This document shows, piece after piece, positions 2,317-63,871 of a DNA stretch of 64,000 bases; positions within the stretch are counted from its first letter, which is position 1; the number at the start of each line of letters is the position of its first letter. Where the stretch lies: positions 2,216 to 66,215 of the forward strand of contig JBDRNC010000023.1 in assembly GCA_043811535.1 (NCBI GenBank), in the 5' to 3' direction. The position numbers and the translations under genes were made by a program. The notes beneath the pieces were generated by a model, which worked only from the letters and a program-made list of their open reading frames with translations, ran no database searches and had not been told where the DNA came from. Source of the stretch: Elusimicrobiota bacterium (lineage in GTDB: Bacteria; Elusimicrobiota; Endomicrobiia; Endomicrobiales; JBDRNC01).

Positions 2317-2778
2317 ATGGATAATCATATAACTCTGACCCCCGATGAAGTGCGCATGCTTTACCGCTCGCTCAGACAGATAGATTTTTTCGCCGACCTG
2401 ACGATGCCTGAGATAGACTGCGTTATTGCCGAGATCAAGCGGGAACAATTCAAAAGCGGCAAAACAATAGTCAAGCAGGGCCAGAAAGGTGATTGTTTCT
2501 ATCTTATATCAAAAGGCGCCGTCTCAGTCTGGCTCAACACGGGGCTGTTCCGCAAAAAACATATAGCGCAGCTGAAAGACGGACAGTATTTCGGTGAGAT
2601 GGCCCTGCTGGACGACCAGACCAGGAAAGCAACGGTGATAGCTGAGACCGACTGCGAGTTTTACGTGCTTTACAGGGACAGATTTTGGGACACCTTAATG
2701 AAGAATCCGTCAATAGACGAAAAGATCCGCAATATCTCCAAAAACAGAAGCAAGGACAACGCAAAGAAAACTGCGTGA
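2317..2778 (+). CDS. Stand-alone cyclic-nucleotide-binding (Crp-type cNMP) domain protein
   Basis: 'GDCFYLISKGAVSVW' and 'FGEMALLDDQTRKATVIA' form the phosphate-binding cassette. There is no DNA-binding HTH after it. Confidence 0.75.
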   Translation: MDNHITLTPDEVRMLYRSLRQIDFFADLTMPEIDCVIAEIKREQFKSGKTIVKQGQKGDCFYLISKGAVSVWLNTGLFRKKHIAQLKDGQYFGEMALLDDQTRKATVIAETDCEFYVLYRDRFWDTLMKNPSIDEKIRNISKNRSKDNAKKTA

Positions 2779-2869
2779 TGTGTGAAGTGTAATGTGCAAT
2801 GAAAAAGGCATTAACTGTATCAAAATAATACAACTTCATTACACATTCAACATCAAACATTACACAATT
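2775..2869. repeat. Intergenic hairpin repeat, family A ('cattacaca' words)
   Basis: Left arm 2775-2803, right arm 2835-2869. The right arm is the exact reverse complement of 6156-6190 (35/35). Confidence 0.85.
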
Positions 2870-2899
2870 TGAAATACTTCAACAGCAAACGGAAGGAAT

Positions 2900-3760
2900 A
2901 TGGAAAAAAATATTCTCGGCATCGATTCAAATAGCTCAAAAATGGTGGGTCTTGTCCTGCCTAAAAATACTATTGAGAACCTGGATTCCTTCCTGACGGA
3001 AACGATCAAATACCTCTCGCTTGCGCTGGAATGCAGGGGATACAACATGGCGCTTTTCAACGAAGAGAACTACGACCTCGAGAGATTTGAAAACCTTTAT
3101 GATAATAAGTTAATAGGCGGGATAATAATGTTCAGCCCTTCGCTGAACGATGCGGAAAGGGCAGCGATCCTCGGTAAAAGCAGGATACCATCGGCCGTAT
3201 TGTTTTCTCATTACGACAAGATAGATTCATTTACATGCGATAACGAGCATGGCGGGTATATGGCAACAATGTTTCTGCTTGAAAAAGGCAGAAGACGGAT
3301 AGCGTTCATCCACGGCTCTCCCACATGGACGGATTCCTACGACAGGTTCCTCGGATACAAAAAGGCCTTGGCAGAATCGGGCGCGGAATTCCGCCCGGAA
3401 CTTGTGAAGAACGCCTATTATGATTATTACACGGCGAAAGTAGTCGTTCAGGAGTTCATGGCGCAAGGCAATAAACCCGACGCTATTTTCGCTGCGAACG
3501 ACAAAATGGCAATGGGGGCCATTCAGGGCATCAGACAGAAAGGACTGGAAGTCCCGAAAGATGTATCGGTGGTGGGTTATGACGATGTCAAGGAAAACGA
3601 GTATGCCGAACTGCCGCTCACCACTCTCGTCCAGCCCATCAAGGACATCTGCGATAATCTGGCGGAACGGATGGCGTCAAAGATAGAAGGGAAAATCAAA
3701 AATGAGAAGCCGGTTCTCGTGGCGCTGAAACCGAAACTGATAGTGAGGGAATCGGCATAA
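2900..3760 (+). CDS. LacI/PBP1-type sugar-binding domain protein lacking the N-terminal HTH
   Basis: 'VGLVLP', 'AIFAANDKMAMGAIQ' and 'VSVVGYDD' are classic LacI-family core motifs. Only 15 residues precede the first core strand. Confidence 0.7.
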   Translation: MEKNILGIDSNSSKMVGLVLPKNTIENLDSFLTETIKYLSLALECRGYNMALFNEENYDLERFENLYDNKLIGGIIMFSPSLNDAERAAILGKSRIPSAVLFSHYDKIDSFTCDNEHGGYMATMFLLEKGRRRIAFIHGSPTWTDSYDRFLGYKKALAESGAEFRPELVKNAYYDYYTAKVVVQEFMAQGNKPDAIFAANDKMAMGAIQGIRQKGLEVPKDVSVVGYDDVKENEYAELPLTTLVQPIKDICDNLAERMASKIEGKIKNEKPVLVALKPKLIVRESA

Positions 3761-3764
3761 ATGC

Positions 3765-3842
3765 GACAGTGACCGGTGACTAGTCGCTTGTGGCTAGTCA
3801 AGGCAGTTACAGGACACTGGTCACAGGTCACTAGTCACTGTA
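3765..3842. repeat. Hairpin repeat, family E ('gtcactagtcac' words) between convergent genes
   Basis: cagtgaccggtgac ... gtcacaggtcactagtcactg. It contains the apbE stop codon (3835-3837). Half-copies occur at 34240-34258 and 37971-38000. Confidence 0.6.
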
Positions 3843-4818
3843 TTAAATCAACATCAATCTTCCTGATTTTCACTTCCTTCTTTAATCCTTCGCTTACAAA
3901 AACATTCCCCTGATTATCTATGATAATCGCTTCCGACCCCGGGAATTTCTTCACTAATTCCATGCCCTTTTCGGGACCCAGGATAAAAGCTGAAAGCGCG
4001 AGCGCGTTTGAAAGAGCGCATTGCGGAGCTACTACAGTCGCGCCTATTGAATTTGCCGCCGGATAGCCTGTCCTGACGTCAAATATGTGGTGGTATCTCT
4101 TCCCGCCTTTAACGAAATACCTTTCGTAATCGCCCGAGGTTGAGACGGCGCAATTTCTTACTTTTATCACCGCAAGCACGCCGTCTTTTTTTCTCGGATG
4201 TTGTATGCCTACCTTCCAGGTCTTGCCGCCAGCCGCCCTTATGTCCCCGCCCGCGTTGACAAGAACCGAGTACGCTCCGGTATCCATCAGCGACTTGGCC
4301 GCCTTGTCGGCTATGTGGCCTTTCGCCATGTTGCTGAGATCCAAGCGCATTCCCTTTTTTTGGAGAAACACATTTGTACCGTCCAGTTTGACTTGCCTGT
4401 AGTCCACAAACTCGAGCGCCTTTAAAATATCCTCTTTCGCAGGAACAGACGGATTCGCGGAATTAACGTCCCAAAGTTTTACAAGCGGGAAAACCGTCGG
4501 ATCGTAAATTCCGCAGGTTATCCGGGATATTTCCATGGCCTTTCTCATAACGGCCGCCGTTTCACTTGAAACTCTCACAGCCGATTCCCCTGCGAGCCTG
4601 GATATTTCAGAAAGGTCGCTTCCCGGGGAATACGGGCTCAGTAATTTCTCAAGCCTGCCGATTTCATTCCACGCCGGTTCCATATTGAAACCGCCGCCGC
4701 ACACAACCTTTATCTCAACGCGCGTGCTCATCATATCCCTTATTTCGACAAGGTTCTTGCGGCGGGAACATGATGCCAGCATAACACAACAGAGTGCCAG
4801 GGCAAGTTGTTTATTCAT
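3835..4818 (-). CDS. apbE: FAD:protein FMN transferase ApbE (lipoprotein)
   Basis: Lipobox 'VMLASCS', plus 'STSGDYERYF' and 'HHIFDVRTGYP'. Start placed at the internal Met (MNKQLAL). Confidence 0.85.
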   Translation of the reverse strand: MNKQLALALCCVMLASCSRRKNLVEIRDMMSTRVEIKVVCGGGFNMEPAWNEIGRLEKLLSPYSPGSDLSEISRLAGESAVRVSSETAAVMRKAMEISRITCGIYDPTVFPLVKLWDVNSANPSVPAKEDILKALEFVDYRQVKLDGTNVFLQKKGMRLDLSNMAKGHIADKAAKSLMDTGAYSVLVNAGGDIRAAGGKTWKVGIQHPRKKDGVLAVIKVRNCAVSTSGDYERYFVKGGKRYHHIFDVRTGYPAANSIGATVVAPQCALSNALALSAFILGPEKGMELVKKFPGSEAIIIDNQGNVFVSEGLKKEVKIRKIDVDLIQ

Positions 4819-6115: not shown

Positions 6116-6124
6116 ATTCGCGAT

Positions 6125-6153
6125 ATTGTAATTAATAAATGCCGTGTTGTCAA
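6125..6153 (-). promoter_or_regulatory. Sigma70-type promoter for MFS-apbE (TTGACA-17-TACAAT)
   Basis: On the minus strand, -35 is at 6153-6148 and -10 at 6130-6125. Only 9 nt separate the -10 from the ATG, so the mRNA is near-leaderless. Confidence 0.55.
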
Positions 6154-6155
6154 TA

Positions 6156-6254
6156 AATTGTGTAATGTTTGATGTTGAATGTGTAATGAAACCGCCTTTT
6201 TTGATACAACTGATGTCTTTTTCATTACTCATTACACATTACACTTAACACAAT
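6156..6254. repeat. Hairpin repeat, family A, inverted copy, between divergent promoters
   Basis: Arms at 6156-6190 and 6221-6254. The loop 'gtatcaaaa' also resembles the copy at 2804-2834 in reverse orientation. Confidence 0.85.
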
Positions 6255-6265
6255 ACTCTCGTTCA

Positions 6266-6294
6266 TTGACAAAGGAAGGCATTTCGGGTATAAT
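6266..6294 (+). promoter_or_regulatory. Consensus sigma70 promoter for rnfC (TTGACA-17-TATAAT)
   Basis: TTGACA at 6266-6271, a 17-nt spacer, and TATAAT at 6289-6294, about 40 nt upstream of ATG 6335. Confidence 0.7.
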
Positions 6295-6334
6295 TTACTT
6301 CAATAATCATTCATTTCTGAATTGTTTCGTAATC

Positions 6335-7654
6335 ATGGCCAGAATCAATAATTTCAAAGGCGGCATATTTCTTCGCGGGGAGAAGAGCACTGCGAAACTT
6401 GGCATTGAAACAATGCCGGTTCCCAGAAAAGTCGTCCTGCATTTAAGCCAGCACGCAGGCCTGCCTTCCAGTCCCGTAGTAAAAAAAGGCAGCTATGTGT
6501 TTTCCGGACAGCTTGTTGCCGAGGCGGGCGGGAACGTTTCATCACCCCTGCATTCCTCGATTTCTGGCACGGTCAGAGAAATAACGGAGTGGACGCATCC
6601 CGTTACCGGTTTGCCGGGCGAATCTATAATCGTAGAATCCGACGGCCGTGACGACCGTTCTCCGGATAACAAGAACTTTCATGAATATTTCAGGTTTTCG
6701 CCGGCCGAGATCATCAATGTAGTCAGGGACGCGGGAGTCGTGGGCCTTGGCGGCGGCGCTTTCCCGACGCATATCAAGCTTTCTCTTCATAAAAAGGCCG
6801 ATATCCGCACGCTGATAATCAACGGCGCGGAGAGCGAGCCGTACCTGTCCTCCGATGACAGGCTGATGCGGGAGTATTCCAAGGATATTATTGAAGGCGC
6901 CAAGATAATGATGTACGTCCTTGACGCAGTGAAAGCGATAATAGCCGTCGAGGACAATAAGCCGCAGGCGGTTAAAGAACTCGCGGAAATCATTTTCAAC
7001 GAACCCAATATAGACCTGGCCGTTTTGAAAACCAGGTACCCTCAAGGCTCTGAGAAACAACTTGTAAAGACAATTCTTAATAAAGAGGTGCCTTCCAGCG
7101 GCCTTCCTTTTAACGTCGGGGCCGTTGTCCAGAACGTAGCGACCGCGTACGCCGTCGCCAAAGCGGTAAAAGAAGGGGAAAACCTGACAAGCCGCGTTAT
7201 AACGGTAGCCGGCAAGGGAATACGCGAGCCTAAAAACATCAGGGTCAGGATAGGCACACTGCTTGCAGATATCGCGGAATTCTGCGGGGGCGCGACCGCT
7301 GATCTTGGACAGGTTATTATGGGCGGACCGATGACGGGCGTAGTCCAGCCGACGCTCAAGGTGCCGGTCCTCAAATGCACGACCGGCGTGCTGTTCTTCT
7401 CGAAACAGGAAACTATTGACAGGAATTTCAGCGATTGTTTCCGGTGCGGGAAATGCTCCAGAGTATGTCCGATGGGGCTTCTCCCGGGCATGTTGAGCGC
7501 CCATATAGAAAAAGGGAGGGTCAGTGAGGCGGAGAAATATTATCCTTCTGATTGCATTGAATGCGGGTGCTGCGCTTACGTGTGCCCGGCCCGCAGGCCG
7601 ATAGTGGAACAGATACGAACAGTTAAACAACAAATACTAAACACTAAACTCTAA
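6335..7654 (+). CDS. rnfC: Rnf electron-transport complex subunit C
   Basis: 'GLGGGAFPTHIKL', 'INGAESEPYLSSD', and two clusters 'CFRCGKCSRVCP' and 'CIECGCCAYVCP'. Start at MARINNFKGG. The last 8 codons and the stop lie inside a family-B repeat. Confidence 0.9.
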   Translation: MARINNFKGGIFLRGEKSTAKLGIETMPVPRKVVLHLSQHAGLPSSPVVKKGSYVFSGQLVAEAGGNVSSPLHSSISGTVREITEWTHPVTGLPGESIIVESDGRDDRSPDNKNFHEYFRFSPAEIINVVRDAGVVGLGGGAFPTHIKLSLHKKADIRTLIINGAESEPYLSSDDRLMREYSKDIIEGAKIMMYVLDAVKAIIAVEDNKPQAVKELAEIIFNEPNIDLAVLKTRYPQGSEKQLVKTILNKEVPSSGLPFNVGAVVQNVATAYAVAKAVKEGENLTSRVITVAGKGIREPKNIRVRIGTLLADIAEFCGGATADLGQVIMGGPMTGVVQPTLKVPVLKCTTGVLFFSKQETIDRNFSDCFRCGKCSRVCPMGLLPGMLSAHIEKGRVSEAEKYYPSDCIECGCCAYVCPARRPIVEQIRTVKQQILNTKL

Positions 7655-7769
7655 AAACTAAATAAGCTCAAAACACAAAGGATAAAACACAAACACTGCC
7701 GTTATATTTGAAATTTGAATTTGTATTTTTGGTTTTATTTAGTGTTTAGTATTTTGTGTTTAGTATTTG
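7631..7769. repeat. Hairpin repeat, family B ('tactaaacac' words)
   Basis: caaatactaaacac pairs with gtgtttagtatttg. About 100 nt closely match 63757-63871. Confidence 0.8.
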
Positions 7770-7794
7770 CAAATCAGCATAGGGAATTATCAAC

Positions 7795-9784: not shown

Positions 9785-9900
9785 CGGCAGTAAACCGCAG
9801 ACCGAATATAGCAGGCATGACACAAGACAATGAAGTCATTTGTTCCAGTCTTTACCGGTATTCTGTCTGCTGTTTTCTGTTTACTGTTGTTATAAAATGC

Positions 9901-9929
9901 TTGAAATTTATAAAATAAATTGATATAAT
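9901..9929 (+). promoter_or_regulatory. Sigma70 promoter (TTGAAA-17-TGaTATAAT) for the rpsB-tsf cluster
   Basis: -35 at 9901-9906, extended -10 TG at 9921-9922, and TATAAT at 9924-9929. Confidence 0.65.
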
Positions 9930-9977
9930 CCTACATAGAATTAGTTGTTATATGTAATACAGACTCATATAACACAC

Positions 9978-10010
9978 ATCCCGGGATTCTGTCCGGGGTC
10001 TGTTTTTTTC
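9978..10010 (+). terminator. Terminator-like hairpin plus T7 run inside the rpsB leader (possible attenuator)
   Basis: atcccgg / ccggggt forms a 7-bp stem with an 8-nt loop, followed by ctgttttttt. Confidence 0.4.
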
Positions 10011-10930: not shown

Positions 10931-10932
10931 TA

Positions 10933-11535: not shown

Positions 11536-11538
11536 AAT

Positions 11539-11606
11539 AAATGGCTAAACGGTTAAATGGCTATATGGCTAAAGTCGTTAGCCATTTGACAATTTAGCAA
11601 TTTGGC
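11539..11606. repeat. Hairpin repeat, family C ('ggctaaatgg' words)
   Basis: atggctaa (11565-11572) pairs with ttagccat (11578-11585), with additional outer word pairings. Confidence 0.7.
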
Positions 11607-11615
11607 AATATAACT

Positions 11616-12896: not shown

Positions 12897-12902
12897 TAAG
12901 GA

Positions 12903-12977
12903 CGATTACACTGATTAATTGGGAGATTACACCGATTATTTATCTGTGTAATCATTTTAAGAATCTGTGTAATCATC
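12903..12977. repeat. Two-module hairpin built from 'gattacac' words
   Basis: gattacacTgatt and gattacacCgatt (left arm) pair with atcTgtgtaatc and aatcTgtgtaatc (right arm). The result is two 11-12-bp helices separated by an internal loop. Confidence 0.8.
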
Positions 12978-12992
12978 TCCGGAGGAATAAAA

Positions 12993-13172
12993 ATGGCATT
13001 CAAGATCGATCAGGAAGCATGCGCGGCATGCGGAGTATGCGAGAGCACTTGCAAAACGCAGGCAATAGTTCAGGAAAACGATAAGTACAGTATTTTGCCC
13101 GACAAATGTACTGACTGCGGCGAATGCGTAGATGTGTGCCCCGTAAGCTGCATCAGTGGGACAAAAAAGTAA
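12993..13172 (+). CDS. 2x[4Fe-4S] ferredoxin (59 aa; below the ORF-track cutoff)
   Basis: MAFKIDQEACAACGVCESTCK...CTDCGECVDVCP contains two CxxCxxCxxxC motifs. GGAGGA at 12981-12986. Confidence 0.85.
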   Translation: MAFKIDQEACAACGVCESTCKTQAIVQENDKYSILPDKCTDCGECVDVCPVSCISGTKK

Positions 13173-13200: not shown

Positions 13201-13920
13201 ATGAAATTGCCTGAAATAGACAATAGCCGGCTGCCGCGTCACATAGCGATTATTATGGACGGGAACGGCCGCTGGGCGCAGAAAAGAAGGCTGCCGAGGA
13301 TATTCGGGCACAGGTCGGGAATGAAAACGGTCAGGGAGATTGTCGAATCCTGCGCCGACCTCAAAATTGAAGTCCTCACCCTTTACGCGTTCTCTACGGA
13401 AAACTGGTCCAGGCCGGAAAAAGAGATCAGCGGGCTTATGACGCTTCTCAGAAGATACCTCAGAAGCGAGCTTAAGACGATGATGAAGAATAATGTACGG
13501 CTGAAGACTATAGGCGACCAGTCTAAATTCCCTGAAATCATCAGTGACGAACTTGCGAAGACGGTGCGTGAAACGGAAAGGAATACCGGCCTAATACTTA
13601 ATCTCGCGCTAAATTACGGCTCCCGTAGGGAAATTATAGGGGCGGTAAATAAACTAATTGCCGGGGGCGCGGGGAAGATAGATGAGGAGATGCTGTCGGA
13701 TTCGCTTGACACTGCAGGTTTCCCCGATCCCGACCTATTGATACGCACTTCCGGAGAGATGAGGATATCTAATTTCCTGCTATGGCAGATCGCTTACGCG
13801 GAACTTTATGTAACTCCGGTTCTGTGGCCGGACTTTAGGACAAAGGACCTGAAGGAAGCGATAATTGAATATCAGAAACGCGAGCGCCGTTTCGGCGGCC
13901 TTTCAAAAGGCAGCAATTAG
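13201..13920 (+). CDS. uppS: Undecaprenyl-diphosphate synthase
   Basis: 'HIAIIMDGNGRWA' and 'LLIRTSGEMRISNFLLWQ'. Confidence 0.93.
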   Translation: MKLPEIDNSRLPRHIAIIMDGNGRWAQKRRLPRIFGHRSGMKTVREIVESCADLKIEVLTLYAFSTENWSRPEKEISGLMTLLRRYLRSELKTMMKNNVRLKTIGDQSKFPEIISDELAKTVRETERNTGLILNLALNYGSRREIIGAVNKLIAGGAGKIDEEMLSDSLDTAGFPDPDLLIRTSGEMRISNFLLWQIAYAELYVTPVLWPDFRTKDLKEAIIEYQKRERRFGGLSKGSN

Positions 13921-13993
13921 CAATTTGCAATTGGCCATTAGTATAGACCAGATATTTTTTAACCAATTGCTAATAGCTAATAGCTGATTGCTG
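13910..13993. repeat. Hairpin repeat, family D ('gcaattagc' words)
   Basis: gcaattgg (13927-13934) pairs with ccaattgc (13963-13970), with outer word pairings. It includes the uppS stop codon. A half-copy lies at 40984-41013. Confidence 0.7.
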
Positions 13994-14004
13994 GATACTA
14001 TAAA

Positions 14005-14832: not shown

Positions 14833-14948
14833 ACCCCGTTAGAAAACAACGGGTGATTCACGGATTAAGATGTCAGCATATTACCTTCTTTTAACAGCAA
14901 TAAATCTGATCGATTCGTAAAACACGGGTGTATTTTTTCTAACGGGGT
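14833..14948. repeat. 116-nt element bounded by perfect 14-bp inverted repeats ACCCCGTTAGAAAA / TTTTCTAACGGGGT
   Basis: IRs at 14833-14846 and 14935-14948. The 11-nt core matches the element at 36414-36498. Confidence 0.8.
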
Positions 14949-16228: not shown

Positions 16229-16243
16229 GAAGTATAACATTTG

Positions 16244-16353
16244 CCCTTCCCTCTTGTAGGGGAGGGTGAGGGTGGGGAGTAACGCCATCCCCATCCCGTC
16301 CTTCCCCATAAAGGGGGAAGGTGTAGGTTAAAAACAGATTAAAGAGGATATAA
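16244..16353. repeat. G/C-rich composite hairpin cassette abutting the rseP start codon
   Basis: The hairpin ccttcccc/ggggaagg (16300-16321) plus a 32-nt tail carrying the SD is homologous to 58726-58781. Confidence 0.75.
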
Positions 16354-17424
16354 ATGATTACCATTTTAGGTTACGAAATAACAATTCTGCAGATTTTCAC
16401 CGTTGTTTTCGGCATAGGGCTTCTTATTTTCGTGCACGAGCTGGGGCATTTCCTGATGGCCAAATATTTCAGGCTGAGGGTTGAGAAATTCGCCTTCGGC
16501 TTCGGCCCGGAGCTTATTGGCTTTACACGCGGCGAAACGCGTTATTCGATATGCGCGTTCCCTCTGGGCGGTATGGTGAAACTGCCGGGCGAAGATATAG
16601 ATTCGGCCACGGGTTCCCCGGACGAATTCATGTCGCAGGCCTGGTATAAACGGCTTTTGATAGCTTTTTTCGGCCCGATGATGAATTATATTCTGGCGGT
16701 TCTGTTGTTTGCCGGTGTTGTTTATCTGTGGGGAGTGCAAAAGCCGGTACCTGACCCTATCATAGGACAGGTCATTGAAGGCAGGCCGGCTCAAAAAGCC
16801 GGAATACTCACGGGAGACAGGATCATCAGCGTCAACGCGGTGCAGGTAAAATCCTGGGAAGAGATGGCCTCGTACATATATAAACATCCGGAGGAAAATC
16901 TCAGATTCATAATTGAAAGACAGGAAAAAAGGATCAAGTTGGACATAAGGACAGCAAAAGATTCGAAAACAGGCTATGGTATCATCGGTGTTACGCCCCG
17001 GATGGAATACGAGAAGTACGGATTGGCGGGTTCGGTCAATCTTGGGGTAAAACTTGCCGTGTTTCAGTCGGTTTACACCCTCAAATACCTGGGAACTAAG
17101 CTGATCAGGTGGGAAAAACCTGAACTGGCCGGCCCGATAGGCGTCATACAGATACTCGCGAAGGCCGCCAAGATGGGAATTGACAACATTCTTTACCTGC
17201 TCGGCGTAATATCTGTTGCGCTGGGGCTTTTCAACCTGCTGCCGATACCCCTCGTGGACGGCGGGCACATAACGATAGCCGTGATAGAGTGTGTAACGCG
17301 GAAACCAATAAACAAAAAACTCGTGCAGCTGTCGAACTTTGTAGGCCTAGGGATTATAATATTCATTTTCATATTCGCAACGTACAGCGATATAGCGAGA
17401 ATAGTGCTGGACATGAAAAAATAG
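16354..17424 (+). CDS. rseP: RIP (site-2) zinc metalloprotease RseP
   Basis: 'HELGHFLMAK', a PDZ region, and 'NLLPIPLVDGGH'. Confidence 0.92.
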   Translation: MITILGYEITILQIFTVVFGIGLLIFVHELGHFLMAKYFRLRVEKFAFGFGPELIGFTRGETRYSICAFPLGGMVKLPGEDIDSATGSPDEFMSQAWYKRLLIAFFGPMMNYILAVLLFAGVVYLWGVQKPVPDPIIGQVIEGRPAQKAGILTGDRIISVNAVQVKSWEEMASYIYKHPEENLRFIIERQEKRIKLDIRTAKDSKTGYGIIGVTPRMEYEKYGLAGSVNLGVKLAVFQSVYTLKYLGTKLIRWEKPELAGPIGVIQILAKAAKMGIDNILYLLGVISVALGLFNLLPIPLVDGGHITIAVIECVTRKPINKKLVQLSNFVGLGIIIFIFIFATYSDIARIVLDMKK

Positions 17425-17499
17425 TGTAATGTGGAATGTGTGATGTGTAATGAAGTTTATTAAAGAGGATTATTCTTTACACATTAAACATAACACATT
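17425..17499. repeat. Hairpin repeat, family A
   Basis: tgtaatgtggaatgtgtgatgtgtaatgaag ... ctttacacattaaacataacacatt. Confidence 0.75.
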
Positions 17500-17512
17500 T
17501 TAAGGAATTTAA

Positions 17513-19076: not shown

Positions 19077-19078
19077 TA

Positions 19079-19166
19079 TAGTTCATAGTTCGGAGTTGGT
19101 AGTTCGTAGTTAAGGTTAAAGGCAATTATAATACTGCGAACTCTGGACTACGAACTTCGAACTAAT
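19079..19166. repeat. Hairpin repeat ('cgaactac' words)
   Basis: agttcgtagt pairs with actacgaact, plus flanking word pairings. Confidence 0.65.
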
Positions 19167-19179
19167 CAATGGAGTTATT

Positions 19180-24595: not shown

Positions 24596-24607
24596 CATAA
24601 CAATAAC

Positions 24608-28374: not shown

Positions 28375-28402
28375 ATAAAACAACGGCTATATTATTGATA
28401 AC

Positions 28403-28474
28403 GGAAATGGCTAAATGGCTAAACGGATATATGGTTAAAGACGTTAGCCATTTAACAATATAACCATTTAACCG
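28403..28474. repeat. Hairpin repeat, family C
   Basis: ggaaatggctaaatggctaaacgg...ttagccatttaacaatataaccatttaaccg. Confidence 0.7.
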
Positions 28475-28489
28475 TGTATTATTACTACT

Positions 28490-29879: not shown

Positions 29880-29883
29880 GAAA

Positions 29884-30008
29884 TATGGTCAAATAGCTGT
29901 ATTGTCAAATGGCCAAAAACCAACTGCATGGTTAAATTGTTAAACGGCTATATGGCTGTATTATTAAGACATAAGCAATTGAGCCATTTAACCATTTAGC
30001 AATTTAAT
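29884..30008. repeat. Hairpin repeat, family C (longer copy)
   Basis: atggttaaat (29928-29937) pairs with atttaaccat (29987-29996). The inner atggct/agccat also pair. Confidence 0.65.
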
Positions 30009-30009
30009 T

Positions 30010-30735: not shown

Positions 30736-30820
30736 CGAATATTATGGATGTCGCAAATTACAAATTGAAAATACTGAACGCCTTTGATCTGTAATATGTA
30801 ATTTGTAATGTGTAATTATT

Positions 30821-33698: not shown

Positions 33699-33800
33699 GA
33701 GTAATGTTTAAAGTGTAATGTGTGATGAAAACAGCAATTATTCAATGTTTGGATGCAGTAATAACTCAATTCATCACACATTCAACATAGCACATTACAC
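33699..33800. repeat. Hairpin repeat, family A
   Basis: The inner 13 bp, aatgtgtgatgaa / ttcatcacacatt, pair perfectly. Arms at 33699-33729 and 33770-33800. Confidence 0.8.
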
Positions 33801-33877
33801 AGTTCCTTTTGTCATTTACTTTTCAGCTGGAATTTGATAAAATAACGCATCATTTCTAATAAAGGAGAATACGTAAA

Positions 33878-36413: not shown

Positions 36414-36498
36414 ACCCCGTTAGAGATTTACAAGTAGGCGTTATTTTGATAATTGGATAAAAAACGGTCGTCTGATGACGACTTATCTCTAACGGGGT
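36414..36498. repeat. 85-nt element bounded by perfect 14-bp inverted repeats ACCCCGTTAGAGAT / ATCTCTAACGGGGT
   Basis: IRs at 36414-36427 and 36485-36498. The GGGG of the right IR sits 6-7 nt before the accB ATG. Confidence 0.8.
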
Positions 36499-37949: not shown

Positions 37950-38007
37950 CGTGGTCTTTGTTCTTGTCTTTCTAGTCACTGATCACTAGTCACTGGGCAC
38001 TAATAAT

Positions 38008-40218: not shown

Positions 40219-40221
40219 TAC

Positions 40222-40305
40222 CAAGTTTCAACTGTTTCAGCCGTTTCAACCGTTTAACATCGTTCAACAGATGAAACTATTGGAACAGTTGAAACGGTTT
40301 GAACG
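40222..40305. repeat. Hairpin repeat ('gtttcaac' words)
   Basis: ccgtttcaac pairs with gttgaaacgg. gtttcaactgtt pairs with aacagttgaaac as an alternative. Confidence 0.6.
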
Positions 40306-40317
40306 TAAATTAATAGC

Positions 40318-44295: not shown

Positions 44296-45100
44296 GTTTT
44301 TGTCCTTCCTTCTTCCGTCTTCCATCTTCCTTCTTTCCTGTTTTTCGGGTTGCGCCACCAATCCCGTCTCCGGCAAGCAGGAGATCCGGCTTTTTTCGGA
44401 TGACGATGAGATAACCCTGGGCTCGCAGACAAAACAGGTCATCATAAAGGAATACGGCGAGTACAGTGACCCGGGACTCAAGCAGTACATCGAAGACGTG
44501 GGAAGAAGGCTGGTTGCCTCAAGCGAAAGAAAGTACCTGCCGTACAACTTCACGATACTTGACACCGACATGATAAACGCCTTTGCCGCGCCCGGAGGAT
44601 GCATTTTCGTGACGCGAGGGATACTTAAGGCCTTTGAAAATGAGGCCGAACTCGCCGCGGTCGTCGGCCACGAGATAGGCCATGTTTCCGCCAGACACAG
44701 CATGGGCGCCCTTGAAAAGCAGTATGGCTATGAGATCATGTTCAAACTTGCGGAAATACTGAGCAAGAAGGACCTCGCTTCGCTGAAACAGTATTCGGAC
44801 ACGCTTTCCGGGCTGATACTGCTGGGTTACGGGCGCGAAAACGAGTTTGAAGCCGACAACTGCGGGGTAAAGTACGCCGTGGCCGCGGGTTTCGACGGGC
44901 GCGGAGCAGTCACATTCTTTCAGAAGCTTGAAAAACTTGAAGGTTCAAAACCGACGCAGCTAGAAATGCTATTCCGCACGCACCCGTCTACGGATGACAG
45001 GATAGCGAAGATCAAGCAATACCTTGTTTCAATAGGTTATCAGCCGCCTGCAAACGCGGCAAACGACGGTTATAAGCAAAGAGTGCAGGCGCTGCCCTGA
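44279..45100 (+). CDS. M48-family zinc metalloprotease lipoprotein
   Basis: Lipobox 'CFSGC' and 'HEIGHVSARH'. The signal-peptide codons are a copy of the pyrimidine-rich arm of the 3' hairpin. Confidence 0.82.
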   Translation: MHLKFRFLSFLLPSSIFLLSCFSGCATNPVSGKQEIRLFSDDDEITLGSQTKQVIIKEYGEYSDPGLKQYIEDVGRRLVASSERKYLPYNFTILDTDMINAFAAPGGCIFVTRGILKAFENEAELAAVVGHEIGHVSARHSMGALEKQYGYEIMFKLAEILSKKDLASLKQYSDTLSGLILLGYGRENEFEADNCGVKYAVAAGFDGRGAVTFFQKLEKLEGSKPTQLEMLFRTHPSTDDRIAKIKQYLVSIGYQPPANAANDGYKQRVQALP

Positions 45101-45112
45101 TAAATGACAAAT

Positions 45113-45185
45113 GCAGAAGGAAGACCGAAGAAGGAAGAATGAAGTAAAAATTTCTTCCGTCTTCCAACTTCCATCTTCCGTCTCC
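45113..45185. repeat. Hairpin repeat, family F (purine-rich 'gaaggaag' arm / pyrimidine-rich 'cttccgtcttcc' arm)
   Basis: Left arm 45113-45144, right arm 45152-45185. 15 nt of the right arm are identical to 44310-44324. Confidence 0.7.
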
Positions 45186-45193
45186 ACTTTATT

Positions 45194-47628: not shown

Positions 47629-47696
47629 AGGGGACGGTTCTATTTTTTGTCAAAAACATAAAATAATCCAAAAATAGAACCGTCCCCTTTATTTCC
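47628..47696 (+). terminator. Intrinsic terminator with a perfect 20-bp stem
   Basis: aaggggacggttctattttt (47628-47647) pairs with aaaaatagaaccgtcccctt (47670-47689), followed by tatttcc. Same family as 61544-61589. Confidence 0.85.
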
Positions 47697-51512: not shown

Positions 51513-51516
51513 AACG

Positions 51517-55859: not shown

Positions 55860-55862
55860 CTT

Positions 55863-58607: not shown

Positions 58608-58632
58608 GCGCCGCTATTTGATATTAGACGTA

Positions 58633-58781
58633 TCCCCCTCCTTTGTAAGAAGGGGTTAGGGGAGATTTTCACAACCAAATCCCCCTGTCTCCCCCTTTAA
58701 GAAAGGGGGAATAAATTATGTGTGACCTTCCCCCATAGAAGGGGGAAGGTGAATGTTAGAAACAGTTTAAAGGAGAACTCA
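58633..58781. repeat. G/C-rich composite hairpin cassette abutting the start codon of the GH15-like gene
   Basis: Hairpins tcccccttt/aaaggggga (58690-58710) and ccttccccc/gggggaagg (58726-58749), plus a 32-nt SD-bearing tail homologous to 16322-16353. Confidence 0.75.
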
Positions 58782-61526
58782 ATGAAATTCAGGAAATCGG
58801 CGGTCCTGTCATCAATCATTTGCTTAAGCGTATTTTTGGGCGGCATGGCAGCGGCGGAGGAAGGAATCAAGCCGGTTTCCGTGAAAGCTTCATCTTTTGA
58901 AAAGGGCCTGAAGCCGGAAAACACGATTGACAACAACGACGGCACCCGCTGGGGCAGTGTTTTCGCGGACCCCCAGTGGATAATGTACGACCTCGGAAAG
59001 GAAACCGCGGTCCAGAAAATCTTCATCAGCTGGGAAGACGCCCACGCCAAGACCTACCAGCTCCAGGCCTCAAACGACGCGAAGAATTGGCGCATACTTT
59101 ACTACACTGACGACTGCCGCGGCGGCAAGGAAACGCCGGCGTTCAATGCGGTAAAGGCAAGATATATCAGGATTTTCGGAATAGCGCGCAAGACTAACTG
59201 GGGATATTCCATCAAGGAAGTTAAAATATTTACCTCATCCGATAAACCCGCGGAGCTGTCGTCTTTCGATGAATTCAGCGCCGCGTCCATATTGAAACTC
59301 GCGCAGGAATCTCCCAAAACCTATTACAGTCTCGTGACCGGGCTTTCGCAGGCGAAGTATTACCCGCTTTACATGGACAAGAAACAGGGTTATTACACTG
59401 TCGTTGGAACCGAAAAAGGTTTCGGCGAGAGCGCCGTATGCGAGGACGGCACGATTGACGCGGGAAGCAAGAAGTTCTCGGTCATACCCTATGTCTATTC
59501 CGAAGGCGAACTGATAGCCGTAACGGACCTTAAGCCGGAATACTCGCTTGAAGACGGATACCTTCCTATACCTATTATCAAAGGAAATTATAAAGGCGTT
59601 GATTTCACGCAGAAGGTCTTTGATTACGAAAACGGCGGCAGGGACGGCGCGATTATATGGTACAAGCTCATCAATAAAGGAAAAAAGGCCGTCAGCGGGA
59701 AGTTCTTTATGACTGTCAGGCCTTTTGAGGTCAACCCATACTGGCAGAGCGGCGGCCTGGTGGACGTTTTCAGCATAGAAAGCGATTCAGCGAAAAACAT
59801 TACGGTCAACAGCAGGGACCTGCTGTGCTGCTCGGAAAACTTCAATAACTTCGCCGCCTTCAGCTACCAGGAAGGCGACATTATAGATTTTTTGAAGAAG
59901 GGACAGCTAATCCCAAAGATGAAAAACGCTTATGACCCGCTCGGCGGCGCCTCGGGCGCTCTGGAATACGCTCTTGAAATTCCCGCGGGCGGCGAAAAGG
60001 AGTTCTTTTTCGCGATACCCTTCGGCAATCCGCCCGTTCCCGTAAATATCACCCCGTCAGCCGCGGTGAAATATTTTGAGATTGCGAAAGCAAGGTGGAA
60101 AGAGAAACTGAACAGGATAAAGATATCCCTGCCCGACAAAAAACCGTTCGACGTCTTCCGGTCAAACATCGCGTATATACTGATAAACAGGGACGGCCCG
60201 GCTGTCCAGGGGGGCTCGAGAAATTACGAGAGAGTCTGGATGAGGGACGGCGCCGAGATAGGAGTCGCACTTTTAAGGGCGGGATTCAAGGATGATGTCA
60301 GGGATTACATAGACTGGGTCTCGGATCGCGCTATTCTGCACAACGGCGAAGCGCTCGGAATGATAAACGCCGACGGCAGCGCCTGGGACTGGGGAAAAGT
60401 CCTGAACGAATACGACGGTCAGGGATGCTATATATTCCTCGTGTCTGAATACTACAGGTTCACTAAAGATAAAGAGTTCCTGAAATCCAAGTTCCCTTAC
60501 ATCATTAAGGCCGCGAAGTTCATAAAAACCCTGCGCGGTCAGGAAATGAGAGATGAATTAAAGAACGGTTCCGCCGAGAAGAAGAGATTTTACGGCATAC
60601 TGCCGATATCCGTAAGCCATGAAGGATACGTGGCGCCCGGCCAGCATTCCTACTGGGATGACTTCTGGGCGTTAAGGGGGCTGAAAGACGCCAGAGAGAT
60701 GGCGCTTGTCCTTGGAGAAACGGAAAACGCGAAATGGCTAGGAGACGAGGAAAAAGACCTGAGGAAATGCCTGCTTGATTCCATCAAGTACGCGCAGGAA
60801 TTCGCGAAAATCGATTTTATTCCCGGATGCGCCGATCTCGGCGACTTTGACCCCTGTTCCCTGGCAATCAGCGCCTGGCCTACGGAGGAATCGCAGTACC
60901 TGCCGGATTCCGCCCTGCTGAAAACCATGGACAGATGGTATGACGAGGTTTACCTGCCGGTAAGAATGGACGGCAAAAAGAAAGTTGACCTGCTCCCGTA
61001 CGAAATGAGGATGGCTAATGCATACCTCATGCTGGACATGAAGCCGAAGACGCTGGCAATGTTTAACTACTATCTGCCGCTGGTAAGGCCTTACGGCTGG
61101 AACCACTGGGGCGAGGTAGTATACAATGATTACCGCGAGCCGAAATACGTCGGCGACATGCCTCATTCATGGGTAGGCGGCATTTTTGTAAACTTCCTGA
61201 GGAACATGTTCGCTTATGAAAGATACGGAAAACTCGTGCTGGGCGCCGGGATAGACGAGAAGTGGCTTGAAAAAGGCGACGAGATATCCGCCGAGAACCT
61301 GCCCACGAGTTTCGGCACGGTTACGCTGAAGATTAAGAAGCAGGGTAAAACGCTGAAAGTCAGCGTTACCGGCGACGCCAAACCCGAAAACGGTTTTGTA
61401 TTCAAATCCCCGTTCCTGAAAGGGAAAATATCCGGAGTCGCGCTCAACGGCGCCAAGACTGACAAATTCACCGGTTCGGAAGTCACGTTTAGCCAGCTGC
61501 CGGCTGAGATAGTAATTAATTATTGA
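58782..61526 (+). CDS. Secreted discoidin domain + beta-sandwich + (alpha/alpha)6 glycosidase-like domain (GH15 glucoamylase/trehalase-like)
   Basis: 'TRWGSVFADPQWIMYDLG...YQLQASNDAKNW' is the discoidin module. 'RNYERVWMRDGAEIGVALLRAG' resembles the GH15 'Y..W.RD' motif. Confidence 0.45.
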   Translation: MKFRKSAVLSSIICLSVFLGGMAAAEEGIKPVSVKASSFEKGLKPENTIDNNDGTRWGSVFADPQWIMYDLGKETAVQKIFISWEDAHAKTYQLQASNDAKNWRILYYTDDCRGGKETPAFNAVKARYIRIFGIARKTNWGYSIKEVKIFTSSDKPAELSSFDEFSAASILKLAQESPKTYYSLVTGLSQAKYYPLYMDKKQGYYTVVGTEKGFGESAVCEDGTIDAGSKKFSVIPYVYSEGELIAVTDLKPEYSLEDGYLPIPIIKGNYKGVDFTQKVFDYENGGRDGAIIWYKLINKGKKAVSGKFFMTVRPFEVNPYWQSGGLVDVFSIESDSAKNITVNSRDLLCCSENFNNFAAFSYQEGDIIDFLKKGQLIPKMKNAYDPLGGASGALEYALEIPAGGEKEFFFAIPFGNPPVPVNITPSAAVKYFEIAKARWKEKLNRIKISLPDKKPFDVFRSNIAYILINRDGPAVQGGSRNYERVWMRDGAEIGVALLRAGFKDDVRDYIDWVSDRAILHNGEALGMINADGSAWDWGKVLNEYDGQGCYIFLVSEYYRFTKDKEFLKSKFPYIIKAAKFIKTLRGQEMRDELKNGSAEKKRFYGILPISVSHEGYVAPGQHSYWDDFWALRGLKDAREMALVLGETENAKWLGDEEKDLRKCLLDSIKYAQEFAKIDFIPGCADLGDFDPCSLAISAWPTEESQYLPDSALLKTMDRWYDEVYLPVRMDGKKKVDLLPYEMRMANAYLMLDMKPKTLAMFNYYLPLVRPYGWNHWGEVVYNDYREPKYVGDMPHSWVGGIFVNFLRNMFAYERYGKLVLGAGIDEKWLEKGDEISAENLPTSFGTVTLKIKKQGKTLKVSVTGDAKPENGFVFKSPFLKGKISGVALNGAKTDKFTGSEVTFSQLPAEIVINY

Positions 61527-61543
61527 AATTCTAAAGAAAACAT

Positions 61544-61597
61544 AAAGGGGACGGTTCTATATTTTGAATAATATGGAACCGTCCTCTTTATTTATGG
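61544..61597 (+). terminator. Intrinsic terminator, same family as 47628-47696
   Basis: aaaggggacggttctatat pairs with atatggaaccgtcctcttt (19 bp, 2 mismatches), followed by atttat. 'ataaaggggacggttctat' is identical in both copies. Confidence 0.75.
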
Positions 61598-61649
61598 CGC
61601 CGAAAAAAGTATAATCTTATTTATAAATCTATCGAATTTGGAGTTCAAA

Positions 61650-62648
61650 ATGCCTAAAACTGAAGAAAAAAAAGACCTTGCTTTAGTAGAAAAACTTAAG
61701 TCAGCTTACAAATCCATCCGCGAGCAGCTTTCAAAAGTCATTGTAGGCCAGGACGAAGTCATTGAGCAGCTGCTGACGGCGCTTTTCAGCCGCGGCCACG
61801 TATTGATAGTGGGTGTTCCGGGCCTTGCCAAGACACTTCTTATCTCAAGCCTCGCCAGCATACTTGACCTTAACTTCAAGCGCATACAGTTCACACCCGA
61901 CCTGATGCCTTCAGACATCACGGGCACCGAAGTAATAGACATGGACTCCGCGTCGGGCAAGAAATCCTTCAGGTTCGTCAAGGGCCCGCTTTTCGGCCAG
62001 ATAATCCTTGCGGACGAGATAAACAGGACGCCTCCAAAGACGCAGTCCGCCCTTCTGCAGGCGATGCAGGAATACAAGATCACGGCGGCCGGGCAGACCT
62101 ATCCCATAGAGTTGCCGTTCTTTGTGCTCGCCACGCAGAACCCTATTGAACAGGAAGGCACGTACCCGCTTCCCGAGGCCCAATTGGACAGGTTCTTCTT
62201 CCAGATAAACATCAGTTATCCTTCCTTTGAAGAAGAAAAAAAGATAATACTCCAGACGACCGGGTCGTACGAACCTGAACTGAAAAAGGTGCTTTCCGCC
62301 GACGAGATACTGCAGTTGCAGGACATAGTCCGCAGAGTCCCTGTCGCCGAACACGTCGCGGACTACGCCGTCAAGCTGGCGCGCATGACCCGCCCTGATG
62401 CCGAAGCGCCCGAGTTTGTCAGGCAGTCGGTAAGCTGGGGCGCCGGTCCGAGAGGGGCGCAGGCGCTGATACTCGGCGGCAAGGCCCGCGCGATACTCTA
62501 CGGACGCTACGCCGTATCCGTTGAAGACATAAAAGCCGTTGCCTTTCCGGGGCTCCGTCACAGGATAATAATGAGCTTCCACGGCGAAGCCGAGGGGATG
62601 AATTCCGAACAGCTCATTACAAAACTGATGGCAGAAGCAGAGAAATAA
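61650..62648 (+). CDS. moxR: MoxR-family AAA+ ATPase
   Basis: 'VLIVGVPGLAKT', 'ILADEINRTPPKTQSALLQAMQE' and 'VLATQNPIEQEGTYPLPEAQLDRF'. Confidence 0.9.
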   Translation: MPKTEEKKDLALVEKLKSAYKSIREQLSKVIVGQDEVIEQLLTALFSRGHVLIVGVPGLAKTLLISSLASILDLNFKRIQFTPDLMPSDITGTEVIDMDSASGKKSFRFVKGPLFGQIILADEINRTPPKTQSALLQAMQEYKITAAGQTYPIELPFFVLATQNPIEQEGTYPLPEAQLDRFFFQINISYPSFEEEKKIILQTTGSYEPELKKVLSADEILQLQDIVRRVPVAEHVADYAVKLARMTRPDAEAPEFVRQSVSWGAGPRGAQALILGGKARAILYGRYAVSVEDIKAVAFPGLRHRIIMSFHGEAEGMNSEQLITKLMAEAEK

Positions 62649-62665
62649 AAATATATTAATAGATC

Positions 62666-62863
62666 CAAATGACAAAACACAAATGATCCGACTTCACATG
62701 CGACCATCTGCTATTTATTTAACCGAAGTCCCTCTTTCGGGGAGACTCCATTATGAATATTAGTGAAATCGCAAAATATAACGCCAATATCAAAGCACAA
62801 AACTTTTTAAATTTAGATATTTGAATTTATTTTGTCATTTGAATTTTGAGCTTTGAATTTGCC
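62666..62863. repeat. Repeat-laden spacer, family I words, between moxR and the DUF58 gene
   Basis: caaatgacaaaa (62666-62677) pairs with ttttgtcatttg (62831-62842). atcaaagcacaaaa pairs with ttttgagctttgaat. About 90 nt of unrelated insert lies between them. Confidence 0.55.
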
Positions 62864-62871
62864 CTTACTAT

Positions 62872-63750
62872 ATGCCTATCCTCGATTCTCTCGACCTGAA
62901 TAAACTCTCCAAACTGCGTTTGAATGTCCGCCATGTCGTAGAAGGCCTGCTTTCCGGACTCCATTCCAGCCCCTACAAAGGCCAATCACTTGAATTCGCC
63001 CAGCACAGGGAATACTCGCCCGGCGACGAGATCCGCCACGTTGACTGGAAGGTATTCGGCAGGTCCGACAGGTTTTTCATCAAGCAGTACCAGGACGAAA
63101 CGAACTTGCGCGCCTACATACTGTTGGACTCGTCCGGCTCAATGAAATACTCGTCAAAAGGACAGCCCTCAAAACTCAACTATGCCGCCCACATTGCCGG
63201 GGCTATCGCCTATCTGCTTCTAAAGCAGGAAGATGCCGTCTCTTTGGGCGCTTTCGACGATTCCCTGCGTTTTTACCTTCCGCCGAATCACCAGACTTCG
63301 CATTTGCAGGAGATTTTCCGTAAACTTGAGGGCGTTGAGGCGGGCGGAGAGACGGGCATAGGCAAGGTTTTGAAGGGTTTCGGGAGACACATCAGGCGCA
63401 GGGGCTTGATAATACTTGTTTCCGATCTTTTAGCCGAACCGCGCAAGGTGATAGAGACTCTTAAATATTTCAGGTGCCGGCACCACGAGATACTGGTCAT
63501 ACAGGTGCTTGACCCTGAAGAAGTGAAATTCCGGTTCTCTGGAGAAAACACCTTCGTCCAGTTGGAGGGGAACGCCGAGATATCCGCGGATTCCGACACG
63601 GTTCGGGACGAATACCGGCAGCTGATGAAGAACTTCATTGACGAGTACAAACACAGTTTCCGGCGCTCCCGCATAGAATACGCCATGGCCACCACGGACA
63701 TGCCGCTGGAAAAAACGATATATAACGCGTTGATGTACGGGAATAAGTGA
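62872..63750 (+). CDS. DUF58 (vWA-like) protein, the usual MoxR partner
   Basis: 'HREYSPGDEIRHVDWKVFGRSDRFFIKQYQDE' and 'ILLDSSGSM' (MIDAS-like). Confidence 0.88.
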   Translation: MPILDSLDLNKLSKLRLNVRHVVEGLLSGLHSSPYKGQSLEFAQHREYSPGDEIRHVDWKVFGRSDRFFIKQYQDETNLRAYILLDSSGSMKYSSKGQPSKLNYAAHIAGAIAYLLLKQEDAVSLGAFDDSLRFYLPPNHQTSHLQEIFRKLEGVEAGGETGIGKVLKGFGRHIRRRGLIILVSDLLAEPRKVIETLKYFRCRHHEILVIQVLDPEEVKFRFSGENTFVQLEGNAEISADSDTVRDEYRQLMKNFIDEYKHSFRRSRIEYAMATTDMPLEKTIYNALMYGNK

Positions 63751-63756
63751 CTTCAT

Positions 63757-63871
63757 AAAATACTAAACACTAAACTCTAAATACTAAATAAGCTCAAAAT
63801 ACAAAAGTTAAAACACAGCAGTTATATTTGATATTTGAATTTGTAACTTTGGATTTGTTTAGTATTTAGTG
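63757..63871. repeat. Hairpin repeat, family B (second copy)
   Basis: The first 23 nt are identical to 7633-7655, and the copy is collinear over about 100 nt with scattered substitutions. Confidence 0.8.

Follow-up and report, generated by a model that had tools for sequence, protein, structure and literature searches.

The spacers between the genes of an Elusimicrobiota bacterium raise the question of why so many of them, even inside operons, contain a long hairpin whose arms consist of a short, repeated word. These hairpins were noticed in a window of 64,000 nucleotides (contig C23, positions 2216-66215), where a sequence-only reading judged them to resemble REP (repetitive extragenic palindromic) sequences and bacterial interspersed mosaic elements (BIMEs). 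Its description of dispersed, palindromic intergenic repeats that fall into families is borne out here, while its proposal that they are mobilised by Y1 transposases, either IS200-like or REP-associated (RAYT), is not supported, as the ends of the insertion sequence (IS) and of the RAYT-like genes are unrelated to the word arrays. We lean, with modest confidence, towards reading the window hairpins as gene-less members of cassettes that resemble the intervening sequences (IVS) of bacterial 23S rRNA, in which arms made of heptamer arrays would occur with or without an S23p-type gene.

The assembly comprises 2.65 Mb in 40 contigs and is 93% complete. In GTDB the genome is the sole representative of its own family and has relatives at the order level only; the order also holds small complete genomes of Endomicrobium size. 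A search with PyrH through genome and metagenome collections returned no relative above 59% identity. Arrays were called with Tandem Repeats Finder (TRF), and folding at each of 17 claimed sites was expressed as a z-score against 200 dinucleotide shuffles. Folding z-scores and TRF replaced a gapless Watson-Crick scan, which found 388 inverted repeats compared to 48 in shuffles and is too strict for imperfect stems.

Cassettes with a four-helix-bundle gene

Six genes in the genome match PF05635, and all six lie between word-array arms in the arrangement X...rcX, i.e., a word array on one side and its reverse complement on the other. Four of the arm families, A, B, D and F, are also families of the window. 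The five intact copies have both inverted arms, while the sixth, of arm family F (families as in Table 1), shows the left arm only because an IS200 insertion cuts the gene. Gapless inverted-repeat scores reach 18-37 around the five intact genes; 120 random open reading frames (ORFs) of comparable size score a median of 10, with a 95th percentile of 19. The arms of the family A and family D cassettes align in register with the empty hairpins of the window, at the inner as well as the outer boundaries. The six paralogues are 22-49% identical, each with its own word, and the closest pair are both octamer-armed. We interpret this pairing of diverged genes with their own arms as an indication that gene and arms travel together. 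One of the proteins matches the S23p of Xanthomonas campestris (PDB 2GSC, 4e-23).

The same arrangement is found in other genomes. Among the PF05635 genes sampled from other Elusimicrobiota, 8 of 10 are flanked by inverted arms of period 7 with other words, some of them GC-rich, and one copy in the genome G003 has ATTACAN arms (N for any nucleotide). In the Xanthomonadaceae all three PF05635 genes, from three genomes, are flanked by G-rich inverted heptamer arrays. A previous scan of ours for long elements bounded by left and right arrays gave nothing above its null. That result is a false negative and is superseded, because the scan was blind to cassettes whose arms bore different unit labels or overlapped called ORFs.

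Reverse transcriptase (PF00078) has no match anywhere in the genome, and the PF05635 genes are therefore not the Avd genes of a diversity-generating retroelement. An origin of the arrays by reverse-transcriptase templating was rejected on the same ground.

The family D cassette (C12; L285 1870-3318) fills the gap between two convergent genes, and its arms abut both stop codons. Assigned by eye from their translations, these neighbours are presumably a malate/lactate dehydrogenase-like and a DinB/Pol IV-like gene.

According to the explanation that we favour, a cassette would consist of a gene for a four-helix bundle of ~120 aa (PF05635; S23p, a homologue of Avd) bracketed by two inverted arrays of ~30 nt, and six such cassettes, diverged and with a separate word family each, would be present in the genome. 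The short hairpins, two arms with a short and fast-changing loop, would be gene-less versions of the cassettes, as would the solo arrays; they may derive from cassettes or may have been spread by a shared machinery. Each four-helix-bundle protein may recognise its own word array. Transcribed stems of ~30 bp would be cut by RNase III, by analogy with what is published for the 23S rRNA IVS, and such cutting would make the elements tolerable inside operons. Insertion, or tolerance of it, would be confined to the stretch from a stop codon to the following ribosome-binding site (RBS). As to the copying machinery of the word hairpins, no transposase, target-site duplication or reverse transcriptase was found.

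Several observations weigh against this explanation. The gene lies in none of the window's hairpins, so that the link is the shared arm family only, and the two largest families, ATTACAN and AAATGGCT, are without a gene-bearing copy in the 93%-complete assembly. A likeness of the empty-hairpin loops to the inside of the matching cassette (p = 4e-4) speaks in favour, but it is driven by family B and significant there only, not in D or A. Also in favour, PF05635 occurs across the phylum in 17 of 18 genomes with at least three ATTACAN matches vs 66 of 282 others (Fisher p = 1e-9), but this association is uncorrected for phylogeny. The genomes G006 and G011 carry PF05635 and, in samples of 40 kb each, show few arrays, hence the gene alone does not produce proliferation. 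Finally, the genes could instead home into pre-existing hairpins.

Anatomy and proliferation of the arrays

Spacers of 50-250 nt throughout the genome (n = 1013) fold at z <= -3 in 39% of cases, compared to 2% of length-matched coding controls. Self-similarity at lags of 7, 14 and 21 is confined to intergenic DNA, and TRF arrays with periods of 7, 8 and 14 lie overwhelmingly between genes. The 827 intergenic arrays, in ~588 elements and under ~97 word labels, account for 11% of the intergenic DNA and are present in 526 (41%) of the 1267 spacers that measure 50 nt or more. The five largest families comprise 41-102 elements each, with ATTACAN as the biggest (~102). Families first seen in the window recur: each matches 20-90 other loci, and the possibility that they are not found elsewhere therefore falls away. 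Local clustering of families is weak (59 observed vs 43 +/- 6 expected).

An inverted partner within 160 nt accompanies 61% of the arrays vs 4% in a non-complement control; the remaining ~40% are solo. Paired arrays form hairpins with a median span of 84 nt. In the units of a family 3-4 positions are nearly invariant and 1-3 are free, and the inward-reading strand is A-rich (40% A, 29% T). We also considered whether polarity arises from arms that present three-frame stops to incoming ribosomes, and rejected this, as X closes more frames in six families and rcX in eight. Arms made of units of 7, 8 and 9 nt have medians of 31, 33 and 32 nt, respectively, and their length has a sharp mode at 30-33 nt. 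This likeness across unit sizes implies a limit set in nucleotides rather than units, and suggests a ruler.

The main rival to the cassette explanation holds that the hairpins are self-generated long simple sequence repeats (SSRs), formed by slippage and template switching at gene boundaries, of which selection then retains only imperfect arrays of limited length; the PF05635 genes would be unrelated passengers. We regard this as improbable. Heptamers are the over-represented class of long SSRs in many bacteria, which has been proposed to relate to the active site of the polymerase (PMC4692102), and most of the ~97 word labels here are without a known gene copy. Self-generation would also fit the private occurrence of family C in this genome, the different words that a relative (G004) has at three of the same gene junctions, and the presence of PF05635 in the array-poor G006 and G011. 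Fresh slippage, however, should leave identical neighbouring units, and the opposite is observed. Adjacent identical units are rare (6 of 258 in ATTACAN vs 25 expected; 2 of 191 in AAATGGCT vs 21 expected), a depletion that is 4-10-fold in most of eight families tested and ~2-fold in the weakest. Arm length keeps its mode whatever the unit size, and polarity within a family is fixed as X...rcX, not rcX...X, with 2 violations among 439 arms. Arms and inner boundaries hold their register across dozens of dispersed copies. Self-generation is likewise difficult to reconcile with strongly diverged PF05635 genes that have an arm family each, in three distant lineages.

Placement between genes and empty junctions

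Arms are placed with regularity relative to the neighbouring genes. At the 3' side of a gene they start at a median of 4 nt past the stop codon, with 38 of 136 adjoining it directly or running into it; at the 5' side they end ~18-20 nt before the start codon, sparing the room for the RBS. Solo arrays follow the same geometry as paired arms.

Orthologous junctions in order-level relatives are nearly empty, which implies that the hairpins are insertions there. The tsf|pyrH gap measures 0-5 nt in G006, G011 and G010, and truB and ribF abut in G006. Three order-level relatives have a short plain spacer after frr, with no hairpin at the position of the 'gattacac' element. At these three junctions G004, a member of another family of the same order, has heptamer hairpins with different words. 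Its truB|ribF hairpin (G004:C7; L281 1340-1470) is a nested composite, built of AAATGCA units with two GC-rich palindromes in the loop (gtgtcgcctttggcgac, cccgccaaggcggg).

Across the phylum, ATTACAN arrays occur in ~10% of 300 Elusimicrobiota genomes, with 4-5 units and the same polarity where paired, and are nearly absent from 30 outgroup genomes. Viral contigs yielded 53 matches to ATTACAN arrays, mostly in giant-virus bins, which are uninformative. The reversed pattern used as a control (ACATTAN x3) has 93 matches in G075 and 24 in G152, both of the same order; these two genomes thus have a large array family of their own.

RNA structure

The word hairpins carry no signature of selected RNA structure. 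Across 340 co-directional spacers, sense and antisense strands fold with equal stability (155 vs 163, p = 0.81), and counts of G-U pairs are equal between the two. Complementarity of the arms within a hairpin is not above the level between copies and is even slightly lower (mean difference -1.8, n = 75). Their potential to form hairpins arises because two arrays are inverted, and conservation acts on the sequence of each array rather than on the pair. They were said to be not simply terminators, and this holds: T-rich tails (>=5 T in 8 nt, sense strand) follow 15 of 112 (13%), and a scan for intrinsic terminators picked up none of the word hairpins while calling other sites.

These results bear on a second alternative, in which the hairpins are functional mRNA elements that tune operons as intercistronic sites for RNase III or other processing, as 3'-end stabilisers or as bidirectional terminators without a U-tail. 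REPs are known as mRNA stabilisers in E. coli. The elements lie between stop codon and RBS and leave the latter free, co-directional and convergent spacers contain them about twice as often as divergent ones (41%, 41% and 39% vs 22%), and RNase III is encoded in the genome. Furthermore, stems of ~30 bp are like those that RNase III cuts in IVS (PMC4990558). We nevertheless consider this alternative decidedly unlikely, given the lack of sense/antisense asymmetry in stability or G-U pairs, the lack of covariation between arms and the scarcity of T-rich tails. About 40% of the arrays are solo, arrays also occur within coding sequence, and the same genes abut in relatives. One family A hairpin of the window (copy A2) is bracketed exactly by divergent, near-consensus promoters of sigma-70 type (6125-6294; TTGACA-17-TACAAT on the minus strand, TTGACA-17-TATAAT on the plus strand), with -35 boxes at 6153-6148 (minus) and 6266-6271 (plus), and because of this position it is probably untranscribed.

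IS200-type element and RAYT-like genes

The window ends in an IS200-type element that also ends the contig. Its full copy (C35:12141-12760) holds tnpA only, encoding a TnpA of 142 aa (PF01797, 2.6e-27). At least six copies exist and break the assembly; one is full, and at least five left and five right ends (~10 in all) lie at contig ends. The left end is always preceded by TTAG; 5 of 6 left ends are inside heptamer arrays (four of family-B type, one of family D), and of the five right ends at contig ends, three lead directly into an array again. We conclude that the arrays serve the IS as targets. The ends of the IS itself are GC-rich hairpins (ccaccaggctcctgcctggtg, gccgccggctcctgccggcgg) unlike the word arrays, which consequently do not qualify as palindrome-associated transposable elements (PATEs).

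A genuine RAYT/REP system is present as a separate, minor class. Each of the four RAYT-like genes has its own family of GC-rich REP palindromes with 4-40 copies, unrelated to the word arrays. The window contains one perfect 19-bp REP doublet of this kind (47629-47687; AGGGGACGGTTCTATTTTT ... AAAAATAGAACCGTCCCCT), a genuine element of the type of REP doublets that form hairpins (REPINs), distinct from the word hairpins; its family has ~40 genomic matches and also flanks the RAYT-like gene C36:8220-8876.

Mobilisation in trans of REP/BIME- or REPIN-like elements by a Y1 HUH transposase, be it a RAYT or an IS200/IS605 TnpA, is in our view largely refuted and most improbable. Its appeal is understandable: inverted doublets form hairpins and singlets occur alongside, as in REPINs (PMC3116915), the genome encodes one IS200-type TnpA family as well as the four RAYT-like genes, and the absence of target-site duplications is consistent with HUH transposition. 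On the other hand, the RAYT-like genes are accompanied by palindromes of their own, the IS has distinct end hairpins and inserts 3' of TTAG within arrays, and the arms of the word hairpins are not palindromic themselves. An inverted doublet that forms a hairpin with its spacer is a feature shared with REPINs, while a cognate RAYT with the same repeats, and compensatory changes, are absent.

We also rejected an origin as miniature inverted-repeat transposable elements (MITEs) of a DDE transposon: flanking direct repeats are not above null for k = 2-6, and there is no target-site duplication. Contig ends as places of hidden autonomous elements revealed other IS families, without heptamer termini.

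Hairpins and other repeats in the window

Inverted repeats of the described sequence exist at every claimed site, including all 17 that were folded. In fifteen of these the z-score lies between -2.2 and -7.0, and no more than 3 of 200 shuffles fold equally well; two folds are weak, those of the family I site at 24596 (z = -2.0) and of the hairpin at 30736 (z = -1.25). The words had been described as 8-13 nt long in 2-3 copies, whereas we find 7 nt (sometimes 8-9) in 4-5 copies. Almost every spacer was said to carry such a hairpin. In the window, 35 spacers measure 40 nt or more; 20 of them reach z <= -3, 27 reach z <= -2, and 19 contain an array of 7-, 8- or 9-nt units, so that the statement is valid for the window only with other hairpin classes counted and fails genome-wide (~40%). 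Likewise, not all spacer hairpins are word-built; several strong ones, at 47629, 14833 and 36393, are not. Scans of the window against Rfam and for tRNAs had no matches.

The operon junctions were named correctly except for frr|uppS, where a small 4Fe-4S ferredoxin-like ORF (12994-13155) follows frr, at a position conserved in relatives, so that the junction is frr|fdx. Stop codons lie inside the first array units in two cases, the TAA of rnfC (7652-7654, family B) and the TAG of uppS (13918-13920, family D); the arrays thus supply gene ends. The 5' arm of the hairpin at 2775 begins on the stop codon of a gene for a cNMP-binding protein, and its 3' arm spans 2837-2866. The family E hairpin at 3761 has convergent neighbours, a LacI-type binding protein (+) and ApbE (-). 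In the family B hairpin at 7631, outer arms of TACTAAA/CACTAAA enclose a second tier of arrays. The family F array within coding sequence (44304-44338) encodes the hydrophobic core of a lipoprotein signal peptide (MHLKFRFLSFLLPSSIFLLSCFSGC).

Table 1. Word hairpins and arrays of the window, PF05635 genes of the genome and the IS200-type end (positions without a contig refer to the window; z, folding z-score)
Feature	Position	Strand	Evidence
Solo heptamer array (AAATTTC/CAGATTA units), possible family I copy	78-109		enclosing spacer z = -3.7
Family A hairpin (GTGTAAT-type heptamers)	2775-2870		z = -2.67, 3/200 shuffles as good
Family E hairpin (GTGACYR/GTCACTA heptamers)	3761-3834		z = -5.69
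Family A hairpin, copy A2	6156-6262		z = -3.41
Family B two-tier hairpin, rnfC/rnfD gap	7631-7772		z = -4.92; arrays 7669-7693, 7736-7768
Family C hairpin (AAATGGCT octamers), filling the tsf/pyrH gap	11536-11615		z = -6.97; arms 11538-11573, 11578-11609
'gattacac' hairpin 3' of frr, followed by RBS of the ferredoxin ORF	12897-12985		z = -5.28
Family D hairpin (GCAATTA heptamers), uppS/cdsA	13905-13995		z = -3.27; 5' arm 13912-13941
Family A hairpin, directly after stop codon, upstream of ispG (GcpE)	17424-17500		z = -4.71; array 17424-17452
'TAGTTCG' heptamer hairpin upstream of proS	19077-19179		z = -5.11; array 19079-19111
Family C hairpin, infB/rbfA	28395-28489		z = -3.71; arrays 28405-28439, 28444-28473
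Family C composite hairpin, nrnA(DHH)/truB	29880-30009		z = -2.65, 0/200 shuffles; array 29984-30007
ATTACAN-family element with degenerate 5' arm, truB/ribF	30752-30817		array 30790-30817; z = -1.25 (weak)
Family A hairpin	33699-33805		z = -3.00, 1/200 shuffles as good
Solo family E array (CTAGTCA units)	37972-38002		array call
'GTTTCAACY' hairpin of 9-nt units upstream of lolA	40219-40317		z = -5.53; array 40225-40255
Solo family D array, few nt past stop codon	40985-41014		array call
Family F array (CTTCCNT units) within coding sequence	44304-44338	+	in-frame translation
Family F hairpin (GAAGGAA/GAAGACC heptamers)	45101-45193		z = -4.89; arms 45110-45144, 45153-45183
Solo array (AAAATTC units) upstream of DUF58 gene	62829-62860		array call
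Family B hairpin, 3' arm shortened by IS insertion after TTAG	63757-63869		z = -2.2; junction mapped
IS200-type left end, preceded by TTAG (from 63866); tnpA start 63955, contig ends inside IS	63870-64000	+	100% identical to C35:12141-12760
PF05635 cassette, arm family AAAGATTN	C27:35177		profile match and flanking arrays
PF05635 cassette, arm family D	C12:54833-55150		profile match and flanking arrays
PF05635 cassette, arm family AACCGTTT	C18:79723		profile match and flanking arrays
PF05635 cassette, arm family A	C28:36189		profile match and flanking arrays
PF05635 cassette, arm family B	C27:28112		profile match and flanking arrays
PF05635 gene, arm family F, interrupted by IS200	C39:156323-156547		profile match and left array

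Two further classes of hairpins were seen in the window. The hairpins at 14833 and 36393 are long-range inverted repeats (14833-14948 and 36414-36498) with ACCCCGTTAGA termini that enclose 60-90 nt. This motif has 78 genomic matches, half of them intergenic, and represents a MITE-like family that is not word-built. The second is a GC-rich nested hairpin (16239-16328, z = -6.0) with G- and C-rich runs (GGGGAGGGTGAGGGTGGGGAG / CCCCATCCCGTCCTTCCCC), which TRF did not call and to which ~23 loci in the genome are related.

Comparison with known repeats

The closest likeness is found in the ORF-containing IVS of 23S rRNA, known from Coxiella burnetii, Leptospira, Brucella and Haemophilus (PMC4990558). 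The Coxiella IVS is a selfish element of 428 nt with a 28-bp stem of terminal inverted repeats, which is excised by RNase III; it has tandem GACAGAT heptamers, whose number differs from strain to strain, and its loop holds an S23p ORF (PMC4990558). In X. campestris, S23p forms a homopentamer of four-helix bundles (PMC4990558), and PF05635 resembles Avd (PMC10053308). IVS and cassettes share an inverted-repeat stem of ~28-30 bp, heptamers in or next to the stem and a PF05635 ORF in the loop, and IVS too are regarded as selfish and horizontally acquired. In contrast, the elements described here lie between protein-coding genes and not in helix 25 or 45 of the 23S rRNA, and they include hundreds of gene-less copies in many word families per genome. 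Excision by RNase III is published for the IVS, while the elements of this genome are known from their sequence alone.

Tandem heptamers were described as short tandemly repeated repetitive (STRR) sequences of heterocystous cyanobacteria and as heptameric long SSRs (Mazel 1990, Mrazek 2007, as cited in PMC4692102 and PMC4679880). The present arrays share the tandem 7-nt units, the strong intergenic enrichment and the presence of several families per genome, to which these citing papers add no assigned function. They differ in their occurrence in Elusimicrobiota, their mostly inverted pairs of fixed polarity, the length of ~31 nt, the non-identical neighbouring units and the candidate protein partner. 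The convergent GGGAATC pairs of X. campestris and X. citri (Rehm et al. 2015, PMC4692102) are also inverted intergenic heptamer arrays, nearer to the 5' neighbouring ORF and seldom present where genes diverge; those are G-rich and were read as G-quadruplex formers, whereas ours are mostly AT-rich. The flanking of Xanthomonadaceae PF05635 genes by G-rich heptamer arrays, as seen here, is not mentioned in PMC4692102. The TAACTGA repeats of Beggiatoaceae, Cyanobacteria and Bacteroidetes (MacGregor 2015, PMC4679880) resemble the word arrays as 2-6-unit heptamer arrays by gene boundaries with a patchy distribution across phyla. However, they represent a single word, mostly in direct orientation just upstream of start codons, as opposed to many words in mostly inverted pairs that adjoin stop codons.

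REPINs and their RAYT transposases (Bertels and Rainey 2011, PMC3116915) provide a parallel in organisation. In both systems inverted doublets form hairpins, singlets occur as apparent remnants, and every family goes with a single-copy, diverged gene that has copies of its own repeats on its flanks. The partner gene here encodes a four-helix bundle and not a Y1 transposase, the arms are tandem arrays instead of short palindromes, compensatory covariation is absent, and a true RAYT/REP system coexists separately.

We also put forward, tentatively and as something that we think is rather unlikely to hold as a whole, a wider generalisation. S23p/Avd-like proteins would be sequence-specific partners of bacterial heptamer repeats, each paralogue reading its own 7-8-nt word, with one pentameric ring per arm of ~31-35 nt (~4.5-5 units). 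Gene and arms would form a mobile cassette without a transposase, its gene-less copies would be the STRR-type hairpins of Elusimicrobiota, Xanthomonas and cyanobacteria, and its insertions into rRNA the classical IVS. If so, the pentameric ring would set the arm length of ~31 nt, since one ring per arm would keep it fixed. No paper that generalises the link between S23p and heptamer repeats was found in the literature searched.

Implications

To our knowledge, heptamer repeats, known since 1990 from the STRR of cyanobacteria and the long SSR class most strongly over-represented in bacteria, have had neither a mechanism nor a partner. While these repeats and the IVS were both known before, what appears to be new is the connection, drawn from sequence comparison, between S23p-type genes that lie between word arms and hundreds of hairpins. 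The genome thereby joins two puzzles, the heptamer repeats and the protein-coding IVS of 23S rRNA, and its cassettes offer a testable candidate for what recognises or propagates heptamer arrays. The cassette reading would also account for hairpins that resemble neither RNA regulators nor transposon relics. For annotation this means that ~11% of the intergenic DNA, in ~40% of the spacers, consists of repeat insertions and not of regulatory sequence.

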